Shown here piece after piece: positions 5,098 to 12,625 of a DNA stretch of 43,220 bases. Location: the IMG/VR virus record IMGVR_UViG_3300045988_055839; one strand, 5' to 3'. This DNA is from a virus. How positions within the stretch are numbered: the stretch's first letter is position 1; each line of letters starts with the position of its first letter. A program made the position numbers and the translations under genes. The notes below the pieces were generated by a model. That model made no database searches, was not told the origin of the DNA, and worked only from the letters and a program-made list of their open reading frames with translations.

Positions 5098-5832
5098 GTG
5101 ACTACAAAGAAAGAGATGTTAGACACGTTTGCGGAAAATCTGGAAAAAGAGCGCATAAAGCTCGGGTATACTCAATGTGATTTCGCGAAAAAGCTGGGGA
5201 TTTCGGCATCTTCTTACCGGAACATCATTTCCCGCCGCGTGGACACGTTCAGTATCATGCTTGCGCCGAAACTCTATGAGCTGACAGGAAGATTCTTATA
5301 CGAGATGTTCGGGCAACGCAGTATCGAGATTGAAGTGCTGAACAAATTCCGCAAATTAACAGATCGGCAGAAAGCCTACATAACCGCCAAAATAGAATTC
5401 GAGCTTGAGATGAAAGCCAAAGAAGAAGATCCTGCGAACATGTTGGATGTCCTGCTTCTGACAGGAAACATGGAAGATGGGATGGTTCTGGATTCCGCAC
5501 ATGAAGAGCATGTGTATTGCCCGGAATATATCAAGAAATACGGAGAGCGGCTGCACTGTGGCATCCGGATAACATCGAACCACTTACATCCCGTATATAT
5601 CAAGGGTGATATCATCGGAATCTCGAAGCGGCCGCCCAGGGACGGTGATACATGCGTCCTGGTCAATAAAAAGAACGGGCGGGCGTACATCCGTAAATTT
5701 ATCCAGTCGGAACCGTGCAGAATGGAGCCGATAAACGGGTATGGGGAGGTCATAACCATAGATCACAACAACCCGGACGAGATGAGGGAATGGGTTATAT
5801 TTGGCGTGGTTATCACGGTTCTGCGCAGATAG
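5098..5832 (+). CDS. CI/LexA-like repressor: N-terminal Xre HTH plus C-terminal S24 peptidase domain
   Basis: HTH: [29 protein letters not shown]-terminal S24 pattern: [18 protein letters not shown]...[19 protein letters not shown], with Ser and Lys retained at the expected positions. GTG 5098 follows AAGGGGGA by 7 nt; ATG 5116 is an alternative start (the track starts at 5038). Confidence 0.8.
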
Positions 5833-5843
5833 GGGGAATCAAT

Positions 5844-6233
5844 ATGGCAGAGACAAAATATTGCAAACATTGCGGACAGGTTATTGACGCGGATTGTGTC
5901 GTGTGTCCGAAGTGTGGAAAGCAGGTTGAGGATCTTAAAACAGATCAGAAGAACGTTATTATTAATAACAACAACAGTAGCAGCGCATCCTCTTCTGCTT
6001 CTTCATCAGCAGCGGCAGCGGCGAGTGCAAGCCAAGGAGTATACGTCACAGGAAAACCAAAAAATAAATGGGTTGCTTTCTTCCTGTGCCTTTTTACTTT
6101 ATGCGGACACAAATTCTACGAAGGAAAATTCGGAATGGGTATCCTGTACCTCTGTACCCTGGGGATTTTTGGAATCGGCTGGATTATCGACCTGTTTACG
6201 ATTCTAGGAAAACCGAATCCGTATTATGTATAG
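5844..6233 (+). CDS. Zinc-ribbon plus TM2-domain membrane protein (129 aa)
   Basis: N-terminal CKHCG...CPKCG zinc ribbon, a Ser/Ala-rich linker, then a C-terminal TM2-like motif ([43 protein letters not shown]). Confidence 0.8.
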
Positions 6234-6479: not shown

Positions 6480-7586
6480 ATGGCAAAGGCGAAGTATACA
6501 AAGCAAAAGAACGGGTATTTTCAAGCCCGTGTGTGGGATGGAAGTTATGTTGATGGGAAAAAGCACTATATTACGATCCGGTCGAAGAAAAGCAGTAAGG
6601 ATCTGGAAGCAAAGGTGGCAGCCTACAACGACAAAATTAAGAACCTTGAAGCCGTCCGAGATAAAAACATCCTGTTTCTGGACTACGCCGGGCGGTGGCT
6701 GACAGTCTACAAAGCCGAAGCAACGAACAACACGAAGAGGATGTACCGGAATATCATTGAAAAGCATCTGCGGCAGATGGACGGCGTGCGGCTCTGCGAT
6801 GTCCTGCCGATCCACTACCAGACAGTCCTTAACGACGCGGCCGGAAAGAAACGCATCCAGCAGCAGATACAGCTTACATTCTCGCAGATCATGAAGGCCG
6901 CGGTGCATGACCGCCTGTATCCAGCCAACTTGCTCGAAGATCTCAAGGACGTGATGAAGCCAATCGACTACAAGGCAGATGAAAAGCGGCCACTGACCAT
7001 AAACGAGAAAAAGGCGATGCAAGACGCTGAATTATCCCCATCTGATCGAATTTTTGTGGATATCTTGTACTGTACCGGATTAAGATGTGGAGAAGTGCTC
7101 GCCCTTACTCGGTTTGATATTGATTTTTCCGAAAAGATCATCAATGTGAACAAAGCAGTTGAATTTGATGATGCCGGGAAACCGAGCATCAAAGAACCGA
7201 AATCGAAGAACGGATTCCGGCAGGTTCCAATTCCGCCGCAGCTCTATACGTCGCTGGAAAGCTACGTGCGGTTCTGCATCAAGGGAACACTTCTGTTTTC
7301 CATGCAGGGCGACAAAATGGTGTCTAAATCCTCTTACCGCCGGAAGTGGGAAAGAATCATAAAGGAAATGAATAGAGTCGCTGAAAAGCCCGTCTGCGGA
7401 CTAACAGCCCATATCTTCCGTCACAACTACTGTACGTCGCTCTGCTACCAGATCCCGCGTATCTCGATCAAGAATATTGCGTCTCTCCTGGGGGATGACG
7501 AAGCAATGGTTTTGAGGATTTACAATCACATCATGCTGGAAAAAGAGGACACCGCCGGAGCGGTAGAAGCTGCTCTTTCTATGTGA
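6480..7586 (+). CDS. int: Tyrosine integrase (368 aa)
   Basis: N-terminal AKAKYTKQKNGYFQARVWDG arm-binding-type start. Catalytic signature: GLRCGEVLAL (Arg), HIFRHNYCT (HxxR), LLGDDEAMVLRIYNH (Tyr). Lies adjacent to attP. Confidence 0.92.
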   Translation: MAKAKYTKQKNGYFQARVWDGSYVDGKKHYITIRSKKSSKDLEAKVAAYNDKIKNLEAVRDKNILFLDYAGRWLTVYKAEATNNTKRMYRNIIEKHLRQMDGVRLCDVLPIHYQTVLNDAAGKKRIQQQIQLTFSQIMKAAVHDRLYPANLLEDLKDVMKPIDYKADEKRPLTINEKKAMQDAELSPSDRIFVDILYCTGLRCGEVLALTRFDIDFSEKIINVNKAVEFDDAGKPSIKEPKSKNGFRQVPIPPQLYTSLESYVRFCIKGTLLFSMQGDKMVSKSSYRRKWERIIKEMNRVAEKPVCGLTAHIFRHNYCTSLCYQIPRISIKNIASLLGDDEAMVLRIYNHIMLEKEDTAGAVEAALSM

Positions 7587-7591
7587 TCCGA

Positions 7592-7614
7592 TGTGACACG
7601 AAAATGACACATTT
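7592..7614 (+). repeat. attP arm-type direct repeat, copy 1 (TGTGACACGAAAATGACACATTT)
   Basis: 22/23 identical to 7829-7851 in direct orientation. The two copies flank the tRNA-derived core. Confidence 0.6.
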
Positions 7615-7684
7615 ACATTCCTTTACATACCCTTACAATCCCTTACTTTGATTTTTCAATAATTTCATTCCGACAACGCAAAAA

Positions 7685-7727
7685 GGCTGAAAACCCTTGA
7701 TTTTACTAGGGTTTCCAGCCTTTTCAT
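7685..7727 (+). terminator. Rho-independent terminator after int (GGCTGAAAACCCT/AGGGTTTCCAGCC)
   Basis: 13-bp stem with one mismatch and a 10-nt loop, followed by TTTTCATTT. Confidence 0.65.
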
Positions 7728-7731
7728 TTGA

Positions 7732-7785
7732 TGAAGCATCGGGGATTCGAACCCCGGACAACTTGATTAAAAGTCAAGTGCTCCT
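7732..7785 (-). other. attP core: 3' portion of a tRNA-Lys(UUU) gene (D-stem 3' strand through the acceptor 3' strand)
   Basis: Minus strand reads GAGCA-CTTGA-CTTTTAA-TCAAG-TTGTC-CGGGG-TTCGAAT-CCCCG-ATGCTTC-A: anticodon arm with TTT, T-arm, and acceptor 3' strand. No matching 5' acceptor strand (GAAGCAT) or canonical D-arm lies upstream, so this is a fragment. Confidence 0.75.
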
Positions 7786-7828
7786 TACCTACTAAAATGC
7801 CCGCAAATACGCCATTCTTGAGAAAAGT

Positions 7829-7851
7829 TGTGACACAAAAATGACACATTT
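7829..7851 (+). repeat. attP arm-type direct repeat, copy 2 (TGTGACACAAAAATGACACATTT)
   Basis: See copy 1 at 7592-7614. Confidence 0.6.
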
Positions 7852-7860
7852 GATATTAAC

Positions 7861-7878
7861 ACACACTGGCCAGTGTGT
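7861..7878. promoter_or_regulatory. Perfect 18-bp palindrome ACACACTGGCCAGTGTGT at the attP edge
   Basis: Read directly from the sequence. It shares the GTGTCA/TGACAC motif with the arm repeats. Possibly a recombination-directionality or host-factor site. Confidence 0.4.
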
Positions 7879-7883
7879 CAAAC

Positions 7884-7917
7884 AAAAAAAGTCGTGTCAA
7901 AATGGCACGACTTTTTT
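7884..7917 (-). terminator. Rho-independent terminator of the moron operon (GTCGTG/CACGAC flanked by A and T tracts)
   Basis: AAAAAAAGTCGTGtcaaaatggCACGACTTTTTT, immediately after the stop of 7928..8422. Symmetric A/T tracts make it bidirectional. Confidence 0.7.
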
Positions 7918-7927
7918 ATTTGTTTTC

Positions 7928-8422
7928 TCATGCTTCTTTTTCCGCGAGATCGAGGTCTGATCCATCGAGAAATTCCCCGTCCTCGTCCGTATTACAGTAT
8001 TCGAGCGCGTATTCGTCTGCAAATACGTACCCACCAGACTTGCGGTACGAGCAGCTATATTTAGCAAGCTCGGCTTTTGCCAAGTCGTACTGGTCGCCCG
8101 TCCAGCGTTTCAGTTCTTCCGGGCTTGCGTTTTCTCCACAGATGCAATCGCCTTCGGTAAAGTTGTTAAATTGTTTCTTGGAGTAGCTGCCTACTCCATG
8201 CTTTAAAATTATAGTGTTATAAAACTCATTCATCTCTGTTTTCTCCTTTTCTGCTTTTTTGGTATCCTCTCTAACTACTCTATCGAGTAGTAAAAGGACA
8301 TACTCCGGCGGGTTTCTTTTTCCCGCCTCCCATCCCTCAAGAGTCCTTTTGGGGATGTTATATTTTCTTGCGAACGCCTCCTGTGTTAAGCCGGAGGCGT
8401 TCCGGATTTCTTTTATTTTCAT
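7928..8422 (-). CDS. Xre/antitoxin-type HTH protein with an uncharacterised acidic C-terminal domain (164 aa)
   Basis: MKIKEIRNASGLTQEAFARKYNIPKRTLEGWEAGKRNPPEYVLLLL is the HTH type seen in HigA/MqsA-like antitoxins. The roughly 100-aa C-terminal domain (Cys-containing, with a very acidic end) is not recognised. Confidence 0.75.
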   Translation of the reverse strand: MKIKEIRNASGLTQEAFARKYNIPKRTLEGWEAGKRNPPEYVLLLLDRVVREDTKKAEKEKTEMNEFYNTIILKHGVGSYSKKQFNNFTEGDCICGENASPEELKRWTGDQYDLAKAELAKYSCSYRKSGGYVFADEYALEYCNTDEDGEFLDGSDLDLAEKEA

Positions 8423-8760
8423 TATTTTTCTCCTTTATATTCAATAAATTCGTCGTCTGTCTCAACGAATTTATTGATTTCTTCGATCAGTTCCTCTTCG
8501 CTGACCGTCTGGAACTCACCGCACTCGTAAGTTCCGTCTTCGAGGCGGTGATCATCGAAGCTTCCGCACACCGGGCAGAAGTCAAATTCTGCCGTAGTGC
8601 CGTAGGAAGCTTCCCAACGGCCATTTTCTAAACGGGTGTAATCAGTCCAGAAACCGTATGAACCCCCGTTTGCTGATTTTTCGGATTCGTACTCCGAAAA
8701 ATCATTAAATCTTACTCTCTGGATTCCTTCCAGACTTTTAATTTTTTCTGTTTTTTCCAT
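8422..8760 (-). CDS. Hypothetical acidic protein (112 aa) with a CPVC...C motif
   Basis: AAGGAGG upstream of ATG 8760. Its stop overlaps the start of the next gene (TAATG). Contains FCPVCGSFDDHRLEDGTYEC. No family recognised. Confidence 0.7.
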   Translation of the reverse strand: MEKTEKIKSLEGIQRVRFNDFSEYESEKSANGGSYGFWTDYTRLENGRWEASYGTTAEFDFCPVCGSFDDHRLEDGTYECGEFQTVSEEELIEEINKFVETDDEFIEYKGEK

Positions 8761-8804
8761 TTTAATTTCCTCCTTGATTTTTGTTATCCCTTAACTTTGA
8801 TTAT

Positions 8805-8833
8805 ATAATACCACTCATTGGCGTATACGTCAA
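8805..8833 (-). promoter_or_regulatory. Near-consensus sigma-A-type promoter of the moron (TTGACG-17 nt-TGgTATTAT)
   Basis: On the minus strand: TTGACG, a 17-nt spacer with an extended -10 TG, then TATTAT. Lies between the endolysin terminator and the RBS of 8422..8760. Confidence 0.65.
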
Positions 8834-8865
8834 TAGGTTATTTTAGTTTTTTTTTATTTTTTGCA

Positions 8866-8897
8866 ATAAAAAAAGGCGCGGGGAAAATCCCCACGCC
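8866..8897 (-). terminator. Rho-independent terminator after the endolysin gene
   Basis: Minus strand: GGCGTGGGGattttCCCCGCGCC followed by TTTTTTT. One position is a G-U pair on the minus strand but a C-A mismatch on the plus strand, which supports minus-strand function. Confidence 0.75.
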
Positions 8898-8918
8898 TCT
8901 TGATATCTTTTATATTTT

Positions 8919-10037
8919 TTACTGTCGATTACACCACTCCTGTAAAGCCTTGACCATCGCTGACGGGTAGCTGATCACGCTGTCTACAGGTGTGCCGAGT
9001 TTTTTCTGGAGCGCACGGATGGTCTGCGGTCCGATATATCCGTCCACGGTCACTCCCGCCCATTTCTGCATGGCTTTGATCAGATCGGAGCCGCCGGACA
9101 GCTTGCCAGACCATTCGGCCGCCGCGATGCCAGCACAGTATTTTTTATTGGCGGTTGGCTGATTGCTGATCACGCCGTCTACTCCGGTTTTAAAAATCTC
9201 CTGCAAGCGTTTGGTCAGCTCCGGCCCCCAAACGCCGTCAACCGAGATCGTTTTTGCGGTCGGCTTCTGATCGGATGCAGATGCCGGGCCACCGTAAGTG
9301 CAGTATGCTGTGTGGCAATTGATCCAGCCCGCACCAGAGAGCAACCGTCCCCAGCTTCCATTCTGAATTTCTGTCACCGTGTAGCTGCCGCGGTCTTTGA
9401 TCGTTCCAACGCGTCGGCTGTCTGCATCCGGTTTCTCCCGGATATTCAGATCGGTGTTGACTCGATAGATTCCCGGTTTGTAGGTTTTCTCTCCGGATGC
9501 ATTGGCGCTTCCGGAAGAATCGAAGTTTCCGTTACTGATCAACTTTTTGAATCTCGTCCAATCACCTCTTGCATTAATCTGCGATGGGCAGTTTTTGCTG
9601 CAGATATCGAGATGGCGGTAAACTCTGGATGCTGGGATGCCTGTTTCTTTCATGAGCTGCCGCACCAGCGCCGCGGTGTTCTGGAATGCCTTTTCGTAAT
9701 CGTATCCGCCCTGTACGCACATTTCCACGCCAATGCTGTTCCGGTTGCCATAAGAGCCGAACAGGTTGCCGTTTCCGTAGTTGATGCCAACGTGCCAGCA
9801 TCCGCGGCTATGCGGCGCGGCCTGGTAGGCAGTATCTCCATCGTCCACGTAGTAGTGTGCAGACATGTTCTGGAAATTACCGTCATGCTGCGCTTTGGCG
9901 TGTGCTCGTGCATTGGCACCTGCTGCGAAGTTGTCGGTGTTATGTACAACAATACACTGTGGGTTGTTGTACGGATAGGTGTTCTGGCTGCTGATGTATG
10001 ATCTGTTAATTCTCATTTGTCGATGCTCCTTTTCCAT
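8919..10037 (-). CDS. Endolysin: N-acetylmuramoyl-L-alanine amidase (Amidase_2/PGRP type) plus SH3 plus two PG_binding_1 repeats
   Basis: N-terminal CIVVHNTDN...AHYYVDD...VGVEMC amidase_2 pattern. SH3-like segment YRVNTDLNIREKPDADSRRVGTIKDRGSYTVTEIQNGSWGRL. Two VDGxxGPxTxxxLQ repeats at the C-terminus. Confidence 0.92.
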   Translation of the reverse strand: MEKEHRQMRINRSYISSQNTYPYNNPQCIVVHNTDNFAAGANARAHAKAQHDGNFQNMSAHYYVDDGDTAYQAAPHSRGCWHVGINYGNGNLFGSYGNRNSIGVEMCVQGGYDYEKAFQNTAALVRQLMKETGIPASRVYRHLDICSKNCPSQINARGDWTRFKKLISNGNFDSSGSANASGEKTYKPGIYRVNTDLNIREKPDADSRRVGTIKDRGSYTVTEIQNGSWGRLLSGAGWINCHTAYCTYGGPASASDQKPTAKTISVDGVWGPELTKRLQEIFKTGVDGVISNQPTANKKYCAGIAAAEWSGKLSGGSDLIKAMQKWAGVTVDGYIGPQTIRALQKKLGTPVDSVISYPSAMVKALQEWCNRQ

Positions 10038-10093: not shown

Positions 10094-10906
10094 TTAGACT
10101 ATGTATCGGTGATGGCTGTATCTTACGTTTTCCTGCGTTACTTTTGCGTAGATCATCGTGGTACTGATCCGCGTATGACCGAGGAGTTTCTGCAGATCTG
10201 TCACGTCCATGCCGTGGTCTATCGCATTTGTAGCTGTGGTGTGCCGGATCAGATGAGGAAATAGCGGTCTCACGATGCCGGATCGCACGCCGATGTTGTG
10301 GATGACCTGCTCTATAGCTTGCTTTTGCAGAGCATGGTAAGGCTTACGTATTGTACAGAAAACGGCATCTGTATCGTCTTTTCTGGTAGCCCAATACTTC
10401 TGCAGAGTGTATTCTGCGCGGGCGTTAAGATAAGAAACTCGGTGTTTGCGGCCTTTTCCGAACAATCTGACTTCTTTCGTGGAGAAATCAATATCTTCTT
10501 TTTTGAGGATCGCCATTTCCGAAACACGGCATCCGGTACTGTAGAAAAACTCGATCATTGCTCTTTCTCGAAGATCAACGCACGCATCCCGTACCATTTC
10601 CATCTCGATGCCATCAAGTGGCTCTCGCGGCTTCTCCTCGTACTTAATGGCGTGGATTTTCGCACATGGGTTCTCCGGAATGTAATATTCCAGACAACAC
10701 CAGTCAAGAAACGTATTGATAACGATGCGCTTAGTGTCAATGGTATGATCCGAGTTCTTCCCAACCAGCCCGTACAAATATAAGCGGATATCATTTGCCG
10801 TGATTTTCTCAACTGGCTTGCCGACGGCGTACAAAAACTGTTCCAGATAACATTTGTAAGTTATAAGCGACTGCGGACTCATGCCCTCAATCTTTTTCGA
10901 TACCAT
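10094..10906 (-). CDS. Second tyrosine recombinase, XerC/XerD-like (270 aa from ATG 10906; the N-terminus may be truncated)
   Basis: Catalytic residues are present: TGCRVSEMAIL (Arg), GKGRKHRV (Lys), HLIRHTTAT (HxxR), LLGHTRISTTMIYAKV (His...Tyr). The frame stays open for 41 codons upstream of the ATG, back to the tail-fibre stop, with no ATG/GTG/TTG. Confidence 0.85.
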   Translation of the reverse strand: MVSKKIEGMSPQSLITYKCYLEQFLYAVGKPVEKITANDIRLYLYGLVGKNSDHTIDTKRIVINTFLDWCCLEYYIPENPCAKIHAIKYEEKPREPLDGIEMEMVRDACVDLRERAMIEFFYSTGCRVSEMAILKKEDIDFSTKEVRLFGKGRKHRVSYLNARAEYTLQKYWATRKDDTDAVFCTIRKPYHALQKQAIEQVIHNIGVRSGIVRPLFPHLIRHTTATNAIDHGMDVTDLQKLLGHTRISTTMIYAKVTQENVRYSHHRYIV

Positions 10907-11029
10907 GTAGACCTTATAGCACGCTGGTAAAAGATCGTCAGGAACCGCTACATCCCTGCACTTCTTTTCAATGTTGTAATCGTCCGAAAAGATCTTAAAT
11001 GTATATTTAAAAAAATAAATTTTAGTTAA

Positions 11030-12625
11030 TTAGTTGATACTCTGTATAGATTTTAGAAACCCACTAATACATTCTGCCATTCTTTTGCCGCCAATAGATG
11101 TGGGATGAAAAAACATATCATTTTCATTTAGTACAAATGAAGAAATATTGTTTTCGTTCCAACCAACCAAGCTATTTAAATCAATACATGGAACATGATT
11201 ATTCCCACACGCATTTAAAGTTGCCTTTGCAAAATCTCTAGTTGTGTTACCATTAGAATTTTTTAACCCATCAGCACTGCCTTTTTTTAAAAAGAAATTT
11301 TCACCATTGCTATTTTTTACTGGTGTTTGTGTCATAAAAACGATTCTTTTTGTTGGGTATTTTGTTGTTAGCTTTTTCATAAGAGCATTTAGTCCACCAT
11401 AGAATGTTCCAGTAAATGTTTGGTCATCTGTGTTGATGTCATTTTCTGTGCCTATTGTTCTATCTTGTGCCCAATCATTTGTTCCGCCCATAACAAGCAT
11501 GACATCAAAATCTTCCGTGATTTCGGCAAGGCATTCATCTGTAGCCATTGCCATCAAACGTCTGCCACCAACGCCATGATTATAATATTTAGAAAATCCC
11601 AATTCCCTTTGTACATAATCTTGCCATGTCTGTTGAGCAGTGATGCTGTCTCCATAAGTGCATAATATTTTACCAACATAAGGCTTTTCTAAATCAGATT
11701 TTAAAATCTTAATTTTTTTTCCTCCAATAGAAAAATCAATATTTGAAGTATCTTTGTCTGTTACATCGTAAACATAAATATCAACTGCATATGATGCATT
11801 CTCAGTAGTTGAATATATAGAAAATCCTCTAATGTCTGATTTCGCAGTATATGACATTACTGATGTTTCAAATTTTCCTATTCCAAGACTCTGTGCTTTT
11901 CCAATTGATCCCTCAAATTTATATGAAAAAGCATTGGCATATACTGATATATCGGTGCTGCTATTATTTTTGAATTTAATTACAACAATATATTTTTTAC
12001 CATTTTCAAACAGAGATATATTTATAAAGGCTTTGTATTGTTCCTTTGCAGCATTTATCGATGTAATTGTATTACCATTTAGCGTTATATCGCTTGATGA
12101 GCCTTCAGAATTAAATGTCAATTCATCTATTTTATCCTTAAATACAATATAATCAATATCCGCAATATCTTCCTTTAGCGAATCAATGTTCTCTCCTACA
12201 ACCTTCGAATCCGCCGCTTGTCCGGACTCTTTCAGTGTACTGTCTACCGGCACAATTTTTGCTTCTGTTGCCTGGATCTGCTTTCTTACGGCATCACCGG
12301 CCGTGCTGTATTTTGTTCCGTCCGCTCCGACCCGGATGTCCTGAAGCTCTGCGTCTCCCGTGGTGGAGCCACTGGGCAACTGGGTGAAAGTGTCGATTCG
12401 CGATGCGTTTGCTTTAGACAGCGTGGCGACCTCATTAACTGCGTCAACTACGCTTTTTGCGGACGTAGTCAGCGATTCGACAGTTTTGCTTTTAAGACCG
12501 GAAGAAACGAAATTCCACAAATTTCCGAAACTGAATTTTTTTGTTTTTCCGTTTAACTCACTTAAAATCGAAATGTCGTTGTCTTCGAGTTCTGATTTTT
12601 CTGAATAATTTTTAAACTCCGGCAT
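11030..12625 (-). CDS. Tail fibre / receptor-binding protein with a C-terminal SGNH (GDSL) hydrolase domain (531 aa)
   Basis: SGNH blocks: [24 protein letters not shown], and FHPT near the end. The N-terminal ~140 aa have normal GC; the last ~1.2 kb is strongly AT-rich. Confidence 0.85.

Follow-up and report, generated by a model that had tools for sequence, protein, structure and literature searches.

The window analysed here, the 43,220-nt stretch of viral DNA in IMG/VR record IMGVR_UViG_3300045988_055839, looks like the whole genome of a temperate phage with a gut Clostridia host. Its minus strand carries the early, structural, tail and lysis genes; genes for a CI-like repressor, a TM2 protein and an integrase follow on the plus strand. 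The stretch that separates the endolysin from a tRNA-Lys in the likely phage attachment site (attP) contains a cassette (7885-8901) with two minus-strand genes in the order terminator, promoter, gene 1, gene 2, terminator (Table 1). An A/T-rich spacer separates the endolysin terminator from the cassette promoter, which has an extended -10 element (TG upstream) and is kept in 25 of 25 informative close relatives, that is, relatives with the upstream region of the operon on the contig. Both genes have strong ribosome-binding sites (RBSs), that of gene 2 (AAGGAG) lying inside the end of gene 1, and the junction reads TAATG, base 8422 being common to the TAA of gene 1 and the ATG of gene 2. The hairpin after gene 2, apparently a bidirectional terminator judging from its flanking runs, marks where the cassette ends downstream and is also the point at which extra cargo has entered in relatives. 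A 1.8-kb region of this locus contains 8 promoter-like sites, versus 2.9 ± 1.8 in shuffled sequence, and 9 terminator-like sites, versus 2.4 ± 1.9. A first-pass annotation of the window had described terminators on both sides, a near-consensus promoter belonging to the cassette and an overlap of the two genes, all of which we recovered.

The AlphaFold2 (AF2) model of gene 2 (predicted local distance difference test, pLDDT, 93) displays a helix-turn-helix (HTH) domain, a long linking helix and a compact alpha/beta domain. Residues 3-48 match HTH_3 (E 5.6e-10). By sequence and fold, the HTH is nearest to Atu1735, HigA2 and restriction-modification controllers including C.Esp1396I. Against HigA2 in the PDB, we obtained an E of 0.03 by sequence and a Foldseek probability of 1.0, the closest fold being the C-terminal domain of HigA2. 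The NCBIfam model TIGR03830 covers the HTH part only, at 25.7 bits (E 8e-6; cut-off 61.8), which leaves gene 2 below the threshold of the MqsA family (TIGR03830/PF15731). PADLOC-DB 2.0 returned generic HTH matches only (HTH_VI, RmrA, control proteins), over residues 2-67. The HTH had earlier been called antitoxin-type; the resemblance to HigA2 is real, but several anti-CRISPR-associated (Aca) repressors share it, namely Aca6, Aca9 and Aca10 (PMC9410906). Relatives encode stand-alone versions of this HTH with 57-68 aa; the version that closes the AcrIC5-like operons described below has 59% identity to the HTH of gene 2. These comparisons suggest that the HTH of gene 2 is a putative Aca-type autorepressor.

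The core promoter contains an 18-bp palindrome (ATTGACGTATACGCCAAT as read from 8834 to 8817), of which many relatives carry a perfect version, ATTGACGTATACGTCAAT. It occurs once in the window, versus 0.02 copies expected by chance, and lies upstream of the operon in 25 of 25 informative relatives with an HTH of the gene 2 type. The palindrome is kept whether the first gene is gene 1, an unrelated 140-aa gene (L027) or absent (L035-37), and in L035-37 both palindrome and promoter are duplicated before an AcrIC5-like operon. The AcrIC5-like operon of L025, L028 and L043 has another perfect palindrome, TACTCCAnTGGAGTA, which overlaps the -10 element. Comparison of both operon types thus reveals two HTH paralogues and two palindromes, each palindrome within a core promoter. 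Unrelated phages of ~55 kb carry a related TGACGTA dyad, TATACGTCA-T-TGACGTATA, in the promoter spacer before their gene 1-HTH cassettes; in L151 both arms are changed (TATACGCCA-T-TGGCGTATA) and the symmetry is kept. We infer that the palindrome is a putative operator, which the HTH of gene 2 would bind to repress the promoter.

The C-terminal domain of gene 2 is referred to as NTIILK, after its invariant start. Foldseek with the full-length model, a query that lowered sensitivity for the C-terminal domain, matched the HTH alone in the PDB; in BFVD it returned uncharacterised gut-phage proteins only. Matches of gene 2 in Pfam, PHROGs, PADLOC and NCBIfam were likewise confined to the HTH. The NTIILK family comprises more than 465 clusters at 90% identity, mostly stand-alone phage proteins of ~96-104 aa without a Pfam domain, and its members have varied acidic C-terminal extensions. 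The cysteines of gene 2 are not conserved across the family, so a metal site in the domain was rejected. Gene 2 is thus an Xre HTH joined to a very acidic, cysteine-containing domain, as first described, whereas the weight given to the cysteines and the orphan status of the domain did not stand.

Among 50 distinct NTIILK proteins, 15 are fused to an HTH and 1 to an AcrIC5-like domain, 6 have an adjacent HTH or ribbon-helix-helix (RHH) gene without fusion, and 27 have none of these; this tally and that for gene 1 below come from a limited seed set of our own with simple open reading frame (ORF) calling, and the counts without a regulator may be overestimates. At least three different DNA-binding domains are fused to NTIILK (two Xre types and one RHH). 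One fusion, to a different Xre domain, lies just before the HNH/terminase genes of another phage, and P0139 is the RHH fusion. Separate regulators also occur, as RHH genes upstream of NTIILK in L081, L093 and L015 and as a 67-aa Xre gene directly before NTIILK at the lysis end of unrelated myovirus-like prophages. On phage contigs of ~100-216 kb (L045-L060), a gene for a C5 cytosine DNA methyltransferase lies directly before the NTIILK gene (for example L045 3966-5309 and L054 2880-4931). The methyltransferase ORF of L054 has 683 aa, versus 321 aa elsewhere, and the extra segment appears intein-like on inspection by eye. By its distribution, the NTIILK domain behaves like a mobile effector and may be the second candidate anti-defence effector of the cassette.

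Gene 1 encodes a very acidic protein (pI 4.26, net charge -17) with an N-terminal beta-sheet core (RFNDFSEY...GxYGFWTDY...SYGTTADF), a CPxCG...C zinc-knuckle and a C-terminal acidic helix. The sequence includes C62-P-V-C65, H72 and C80, and the best-conserved part is the N-terminal beta core. An AF2 model built with 32 homologues (pLDDT 77) shows the same small beta-sheet, Cys-knuckle and C-terminal helix. Foldseek against the PDB gave no fold match, the best being an unrelated protein (E 0.11; template modelling score, TM, 0.33). Pfam, PHROGs, PADLOC and NCBIfam yielded no family beyond weak zinc-ribbon noise, and sequence and profile searches of the PDB yielded no meaningful match. The protein does belong to a large phage family, with 52 clusters in a word-indexed search and 495 representatives at 50% identity in an exhaustive one (E<=1e-3), and no Pfam domain is common to the 146 members checked. 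The earlier description of gene 1 as acidic, with a CPVC...C motif and no recognisable family, is therefore upheld, whereas its status as an orphan is not. The remark that neither protein contains a known toxin or defence domain also agrees with our Foldseek (PDB) and PADLOC searches, which gave no effector match for either.

Most homologues of gene 1 have a fourth cysteine at the position of Ser29 in the window, giving a Cys4 arrangement; the window subfamily has Ser at this first Cys position and retains Cys3 with a possible His. Of 40 distinct proteins, 24 have an HTH gene downstream, 8 have one upstream and 8 have neither, the last including L114, L116, L120 and L125 in large phages. Homologues occur in early or accessory regions of phages of 50-180 kb. 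The two tallies, with members fused, adjacent or alone, indicate that gene 1 and NTIILK are independent modules, repeatedly coupled to small DNA-binding proteins. Gene 1 may be viewed as a candidate anti-defence effector.

To place the cassette among its relatives, we compared the locus across IMG/VR, where relatives of the window are contigs of 31-47 kb. The fused HTH-NTIILK gene is found in 24 of them, one of which ends too near to judge; gene 1 lies upstream in 19 of the remaining 23, the unrelated 140-aa gene in L027 and nothing in L035-37. L001, which is 95% identical to the window on both sides of the locus, has a four-gene insertion of 1.69 kb exactly at the downstream hairpin. The cassette is thus exchanged, gained and lost among relatives, which marks it as exchangeable cargo and not as part of the lysis module. 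These comparisons bear out the earlier proposal of a self-contained accessory cassette at a hotspot between endolysin and attP, where relatives carry different or extra cargo.

The insertion of L001 has an acr-acr-aca-like gene order, and its 68-aa RHH is a relative of the one encoded before the NTIILK-AcrIC5 fusion of L015. A Cys-rich protein of ~173-177 aa (KKCxICGKEF...SRECR...), without a Pfam match, recurs directly downstream of NTIILK genes or near them in both close and unrelated phages and may belong to the same pool of accessory genes.

Six relatives (L025, L028, L035, L036, L037 and L043), sister phages with the same integrase and endolysin as the window, carry an extra operon in the same hotspot. 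Its first gene encodes a 65-aa AcrIC5-family protein (PF22147, 40.2 bits, cut-off 27). The second encodes ~324 aa related to Cas8c/Csd1 (PF09709, 65-68 bits), covering only the N-terminal ~210 positions of the model (3-213 of 559), and the last is a stand-alone HTH of 57-65 aa. The NTIILK domain is tied to the same families elsewhere. In P0146 its fusion partner is an AcrIC5-like domain (26.5 bits, E 7e-6), and the genes there run RHH, fusion gene, 86-aa gene, Cas8c fragment (91 bits); in L095 an AcrIC5-like ORF lies ~460 nt upstream of the NTIILK gene. On large phage contigs (90-216 kb), both the gene 1 and NTIILK families occur in early or accessory regions, where their neighbours include AcrIC5-like genes, a DNA methyltransferase and a restriction-alleviation gene of the Lar type. 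The literature we searched gave no description of the unusual pairing of an AcrIC5-family gene with a phage-encoded truncated Cas8c. Such a fragment, beside an inhibitor predicted to bind Cas8c, could act as a decoy or a dominant-negative subunit.

Outside these relatives, the cassette recurs in the unrelated ~55-kb phages as a promoter-dyad followed by a homologue of gene 1 and a gene 2-type HTH of 68 aa, and in L126-L153 (for example L152 3899-4834) the operon runs on into a 106-115-aa HExxH protein with 21.7 bits to IrrE/Peptidase_M78 (cut-off 22). Both families occur exclusively in phages or prophages of gut Clostridia. A scan of GTDB genomes gave 5 loci, in hosts among Clostridia, Eubacterium and Lachnospiraceae, and PLSDB plasmids gave none. 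Among GenBank phage records, one unannotated human-faecal virome scaffold contains both families and is the sole record covering the cassette, at 96% identity over the cassette and the 3' end of the endolysin. Our literature searches found no description of either family.

Taken together, our findings favour a role in counter-defence: the cassette would be an operon of the acr-aca (anti-CRISPR and anti-CRISPR-associated) type that regulates itself, a reading to which we assign a probability of roughly 55%. The support comes from the architecture, the conserved operator, the presence of the HTH family in AcrIC5-family operons, and the fusion or adjacency of NTIILK to AcrIC5-like genes and Cas8c fragments. 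We observed the anatomy of the cassette, the conservation of promoter and palindrome, the linkage of HTH family to palindrome and the ties to AcrIC5-family genes; from these we infer that either protein would act as an inhibitor, and what it would target. Several features of acr-aca operons are found here: small genes that form one short operon on a single strand, enclosed by terminators, in the genome of a temperate phage; an HTH regulator encoded within the operon; an inverted repeat conserved within the core promoter; and a paralogous HTH in operons of a validated Acr family, AcrIC5, whose homologues here are predicted. Gene 2 most likely joins a candidate anti-defence domain to a repressor of its own operon. 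That both proteins are extremely acidic agrees with this reading, since the DNA-mimic Acrs AcrIC5 and AcrIC9, which inhibit type I-C Cascade, are acidic as well (PMC7913775; 10.1101/2025.06.06.658234; PMC7391736; PMC10478522).

In this model, the strong promoter would fire when phage DNA enters the cell and would be held at a low repressed level in the lysogen. Its products, gene 1 and the NTIILK domain of gene 2, both small and very acidic, would bind and block a host immune complex that targets nucleic acids. The most likely target in these Clostridia hosts would be type I-C CRISPR-Cas, as the AcrIC5 homologues and Cas8c fragments of the sister phages suggest that their hosts have type I-C systems. 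The HTH of gene 2 would then dimerise on the palindrome over the -35 element and shut the promoter, as do Aca proteins and the bifunctional AcrIIA1.

On the other hand, several points weigh against this interpretation. Searches of Pfam, PHROGs, PDB sequences and Foldseek related neither gene 1 nor gene 2 to a known Acr or anti-defence protein. The window phage carries no AcrIC5-like gene and no Cas8c fragment, so its link to CRISPR is one of association only. Autoregulation by an HTH and a palindrome is equally typical of toxin-antitoxin systems, restriction-modification controllers and ordinary phage repressors. The sharing of promoter and palindrome among relatives partly reflects common descent and not independent selection, and the dyad of the ~55-kb phages has its half-sites in the opposite arrangement. 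The IrrE/M78-like protease of their operon could point to an ImmR/ImmA-type switch, in which the promoter is de-repressed by proteolysis.

The first-pass annotation had favoured a defence or toxin-antitoxin role, and we regard both as less likely than counter-defence. A terminator-insulated unit with its own promoter, at the prophage end beside attP, does occupy the classical position of a moron, and might benefit the host through defence, superinfection exclusion or modulation of host physiology when expressed from the lysogen under an autoregulated promoter. The locus varies among relatives, and some NTIILK homologues take the same post-lysis-gene position in unrelated prophages, as expected of such cargo. 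However, PADLOC gave no match beyond the generic HTH, and the neighbours on large contigs listed above are counter-defence company. Both proteins are acidic, of 100-110 aa, and carry no enzymatic or membrane domain. We therefore consider a host-benefit moron unlikely.

A type II toxin-antitoxin pair with the toxin first (higBA/mqsRA-like) appears more doubtful still. Gene 1 would be the toxin, and gene 2 the antitoxin, whose acidic C-terminus neutralises gene 1 and whose HTH autorepresses through the palindrome. The small size and stop/start overlap of the two genes fit this arrangement, as do a dedicated promoter with its palindrome, the nearness of the HTH to HigA2 and MqsA-type antitoxins, the recurrence of the gene 1-HTH pair in two phage lineages, and an acidity typical of antitoxins. 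Toxins of the RelE, HigB and MqsR types are basic, however, in contrast to the strongly negative gene 1, which matches no toxin family in Pfam, NCBIfam, PADLOC or the PDB and no RelE/MqsR-like fold in Foldseek. The 8 of 40 homologues without an HTH neighbour also count against a toxin, which should not survive alone. The stand-alone HTH partners are too short for a neutralising domain, NTIILK is mostly stand-alone, with 27 of 50 distinct members lacking a detected regulator nearby, and the TIGR03830 score lies far under its cut-off. The functional class is thus revised, on comparative evidence, to a probable anti-CRISPR-like operon with a fused Aca-type repressor, as no toxin or defence family in PADLOC, NCBIfam or Pfam matched, gene 1 is so acidic, and both modules occur without an HTH partner.

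CxxCG knuckles are present in MqsA/YgiT, and structures of MqsA are deposited in the PDB. An ordinary phage regulatory module, in which gene 2 is a transcription factor with a C-terminal sensor or oligomerisation domain and gene 1 its zinc-ribbon cofactor, is very improbable: the CPVCG knuckle of gene 1 and the weak MqsA match of the HTH might suggest a split MqsA-like form, one fused HTH-NTIILK gene occupies a frequent late-regulator site just before HNH/terminase genes, and the ~55-kb operon extends into an IrrE/ImmA-like protease gene, but near-identical phages gain, lose and swap this dispensable cassette, which makes a housekeeping regulator unlikely, and both families lie mostly away from any DNA-binding domain. 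The split MqsA itself was rejected, as neither the gene 1 profile (E<=10) nor Foldseek returned MqsA, and the conserved core of gene 1, its N-terminal beta structure, lies outside the zinc knuckle and is absent from MqsA.

Table 1. Coordinates of the cassette, its flanking features and related loci. Positions refer to the window unless a contig is named.
Feature	Position	Strand	Details
Endolysin intrinsic terminator (upstream cassette boundary)	8871-8901	-	14-bp stem, 8 GC pairs, T-run; kept in relatives
Sigma-70-type cassette promoter	8805-8833	-	TTGACG (8833-8828), 17-nt spacer, TGgTATTAT (TATTAT 8810-8805); 10/12 matches
Palindrome (putative operator), 18 bp	8817-8834	.	halves ATTGACGTA and TACGCCAAT, one mismatch; overlaps -35 and spacer
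RBS of gene 1	8769-8775	-	AAGGAGG, 8 nt before the ATG at 8760
Gene 1	8760->8422	-	112 aa
Gene 2	8422->7928	-	164 aa
Gene 2 HTH domain	8258-8422	-	residues 1-55; HigA2/MqsA-like Xre, basic, pI 9.8
Gene 2 NTIILK domain	7931-8233	-	residues 64-164; alpha/beta fold, pI 4.3
Downstream hairpin terminator	7885-7917	.	15-bp stem, A-run and T-run flanks, 10 nt after the gene 2 stop
Promoter of tRNA-Lys	7881-7853	-	near-consensus TTGACA-17-TAATAT
Direct repeat around tRNA-Lys	7593-7614 and 7831-7852		TGACACnAAAATGACACATTT; candidate arm-type integrase sites
tRNA-Lys(UUU)	7732-7803	-	complete (ARAGORN); between integrase and cassette
Integrase	6480-7586	+	flanks the cassette
Amidase_2 endolysin	8919-10037	-	flanks the cassette
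L001 insertion	L001 778-2468		at window ~7885-7889; 148 aa, 112 aa, 68-aa RHH, 173-aa zinc-finger protein
Cys-rich protein, ~173-177 aa	L001 807-1328; L064/66/68 5804-6322		in L021-26, L033 and L034 directly after gene 2
AcrIC5-like operons	L035 4652-6398; L028 5498-6969; L043 5742-7100; L025 7361-8504; L015 69-2275	- (L025)	Cas8c fragments 65-91 bits

The region between integrase and cassette (7590-7885) is likely attP, with arm-type sites at the repeats and a crossover core in the 3' half of the tRNA. The 3' end of tRNA-Lys points toward the integrase. Comparison of the window with L001 revealed 100% identity from the integrase side to the anticodon region and ~75% thereafter, and this drop in identity would mark the core. 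The L001 copy has lost the tRNA fold and is not called as a tRNA. The pattern of tRNA, repeats and identity break justifies the placement of the cassette between endolysin and attP.

A few neighbouring genes deserve mention. On the lysogeny side, a further accessory gene (5715-6233, plus strand) lies between those for the CI-like repressor (HTH and Peptidase_S24) and the integrase; its product combines a zinc-ribbon and a TM2 domain with a linker rich in Ser and Ala. On the other side, a second tyrosine recombinase (10094-10999, minus strand; Phage_integrase E 3e-34) lies between the endolysin and tail-fibre-like genes. Its homology to the 328-aa version of relatives ends at 10999, the window copy being without the first 27 codons, and this breakpoint coincides with a swapped downstream module of low GC content (0.32). 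A role as tail-fibre invertase was rejected, as no convincing inverted repeats were found. A further gene (11030-12625, minus strand) encodes 531 aa with a C-terminal GDSL/SGNH esterase domain (E 8e-14). It is located in the lowest-GC kilobase of the window, after a tail fibre containing Peptidase_S74, and L001 differs in its genes here. The GDSL/SGNH protein is probably a receptor-modifying tail protein gained by module exchange.

Returning to the acr-aca reading, a wider version of it can be put forward tentatively and is, in our view, somewhat less likely to be right than wrong. Gene 1 and NTIILK might represent two new, widespread families of anti-CRISPR or broader anti-defence proteins, gene 2 a new bifunctional Aca-Acr, and the HTH with its palindrome a new Aca-type marker. 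In its boldest version, the binding of NTIILK to its immune target would pull the HTH off the operator, so that inhibitor production follows how much target the cell contains. For the Clostridia that dominate the human gut, few inhibitors of CRISPR-Cas or other immunity are known, and the two large candidate families are without description in any protein-family library. The HTH-operator pair could be used as a marker to search gut viromes for inhibitors through guilt by association. If validated, the proteins would add tools to control type I-C editors and help to explain phage-host dynamics in the gut. If validation fails, the locus still illustrates clearly how phages exchange modular cargo at an attP-proximal hotspot.

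Finally, we compared the cassette with known systems. Like HigBA2 and MqsRA, it has a first gene followed by an Xre-type HTH gene, a stop/start overlap and a palindromic operator, putative here; unlike their toxins, gene 1 is very acidic, shows no RelE/MqsR-like fold or family and often occurs without an HTH partner. A small directon with an HTH gene in second position is a hallmark of Acrs (PMC7391736). AcrIC9, one of the acidic DNA-mimic Acrs, is a protein of 79 aa with a pI of 3.96 and a deposited crystal structure (PMC7391736; PMC10478522). Gene 1 and NTIILK differ from it in lacking any structural or sequence match, and gene 1 has an extra zinc-knuckle; they resemble it in small size, a pI of about 4 and a short directon with an HTH second gene.

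AcrIC5 is small, highly acidic and predicted to occlude the protospacer adjacent motif (PAM) site of Cas8c (10.1101/2025.06.06.658234), and in Pseudomonas acrIC5 is found together with aca1 (PMC7913775). In sequence, neither gene 1 nor NTIILK is related to AcrIC5, and the partner here is a HigA2/MqsA-like Xre HTH and not aca1. Like AcrIC5, gene 1 and NTIILK are small and acidic, and the sister phages place an AcrIC5-family operon in the same hotspot, with the HTH related to that of gene 2, three of them sharing promoter and palindrome.

The general acr-aca design has an inverted repeat in the core promoter and an Aca of ~60-65 aa, and some Acrs, such as AcrIIA1, carry their own HTH (PMC9410906). 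In AcrIIA1 of Listeria prophages (~150 aa), the HTH at the N-terminus represses the anti-CRISPR promoter and the C-terminal domain acts as the inhibitor; the operon includes other small acr genes (PMC9410906; bioRxiv 10.1101/787200). A PDB sequence search with gene 2 (E<=1) does not list AcrIIA1, and the C-terminal fold of gene 2 has no PDB match. The target of AcrIIA1 is Cas9, whereas that of gene 2 would, by association, likely be type I-C. Gene 2, with its predicted two-domain architecture, would follow the two-part plan of AcrIIA1, and its operon likewise has an inverted repeat in the core promoter.

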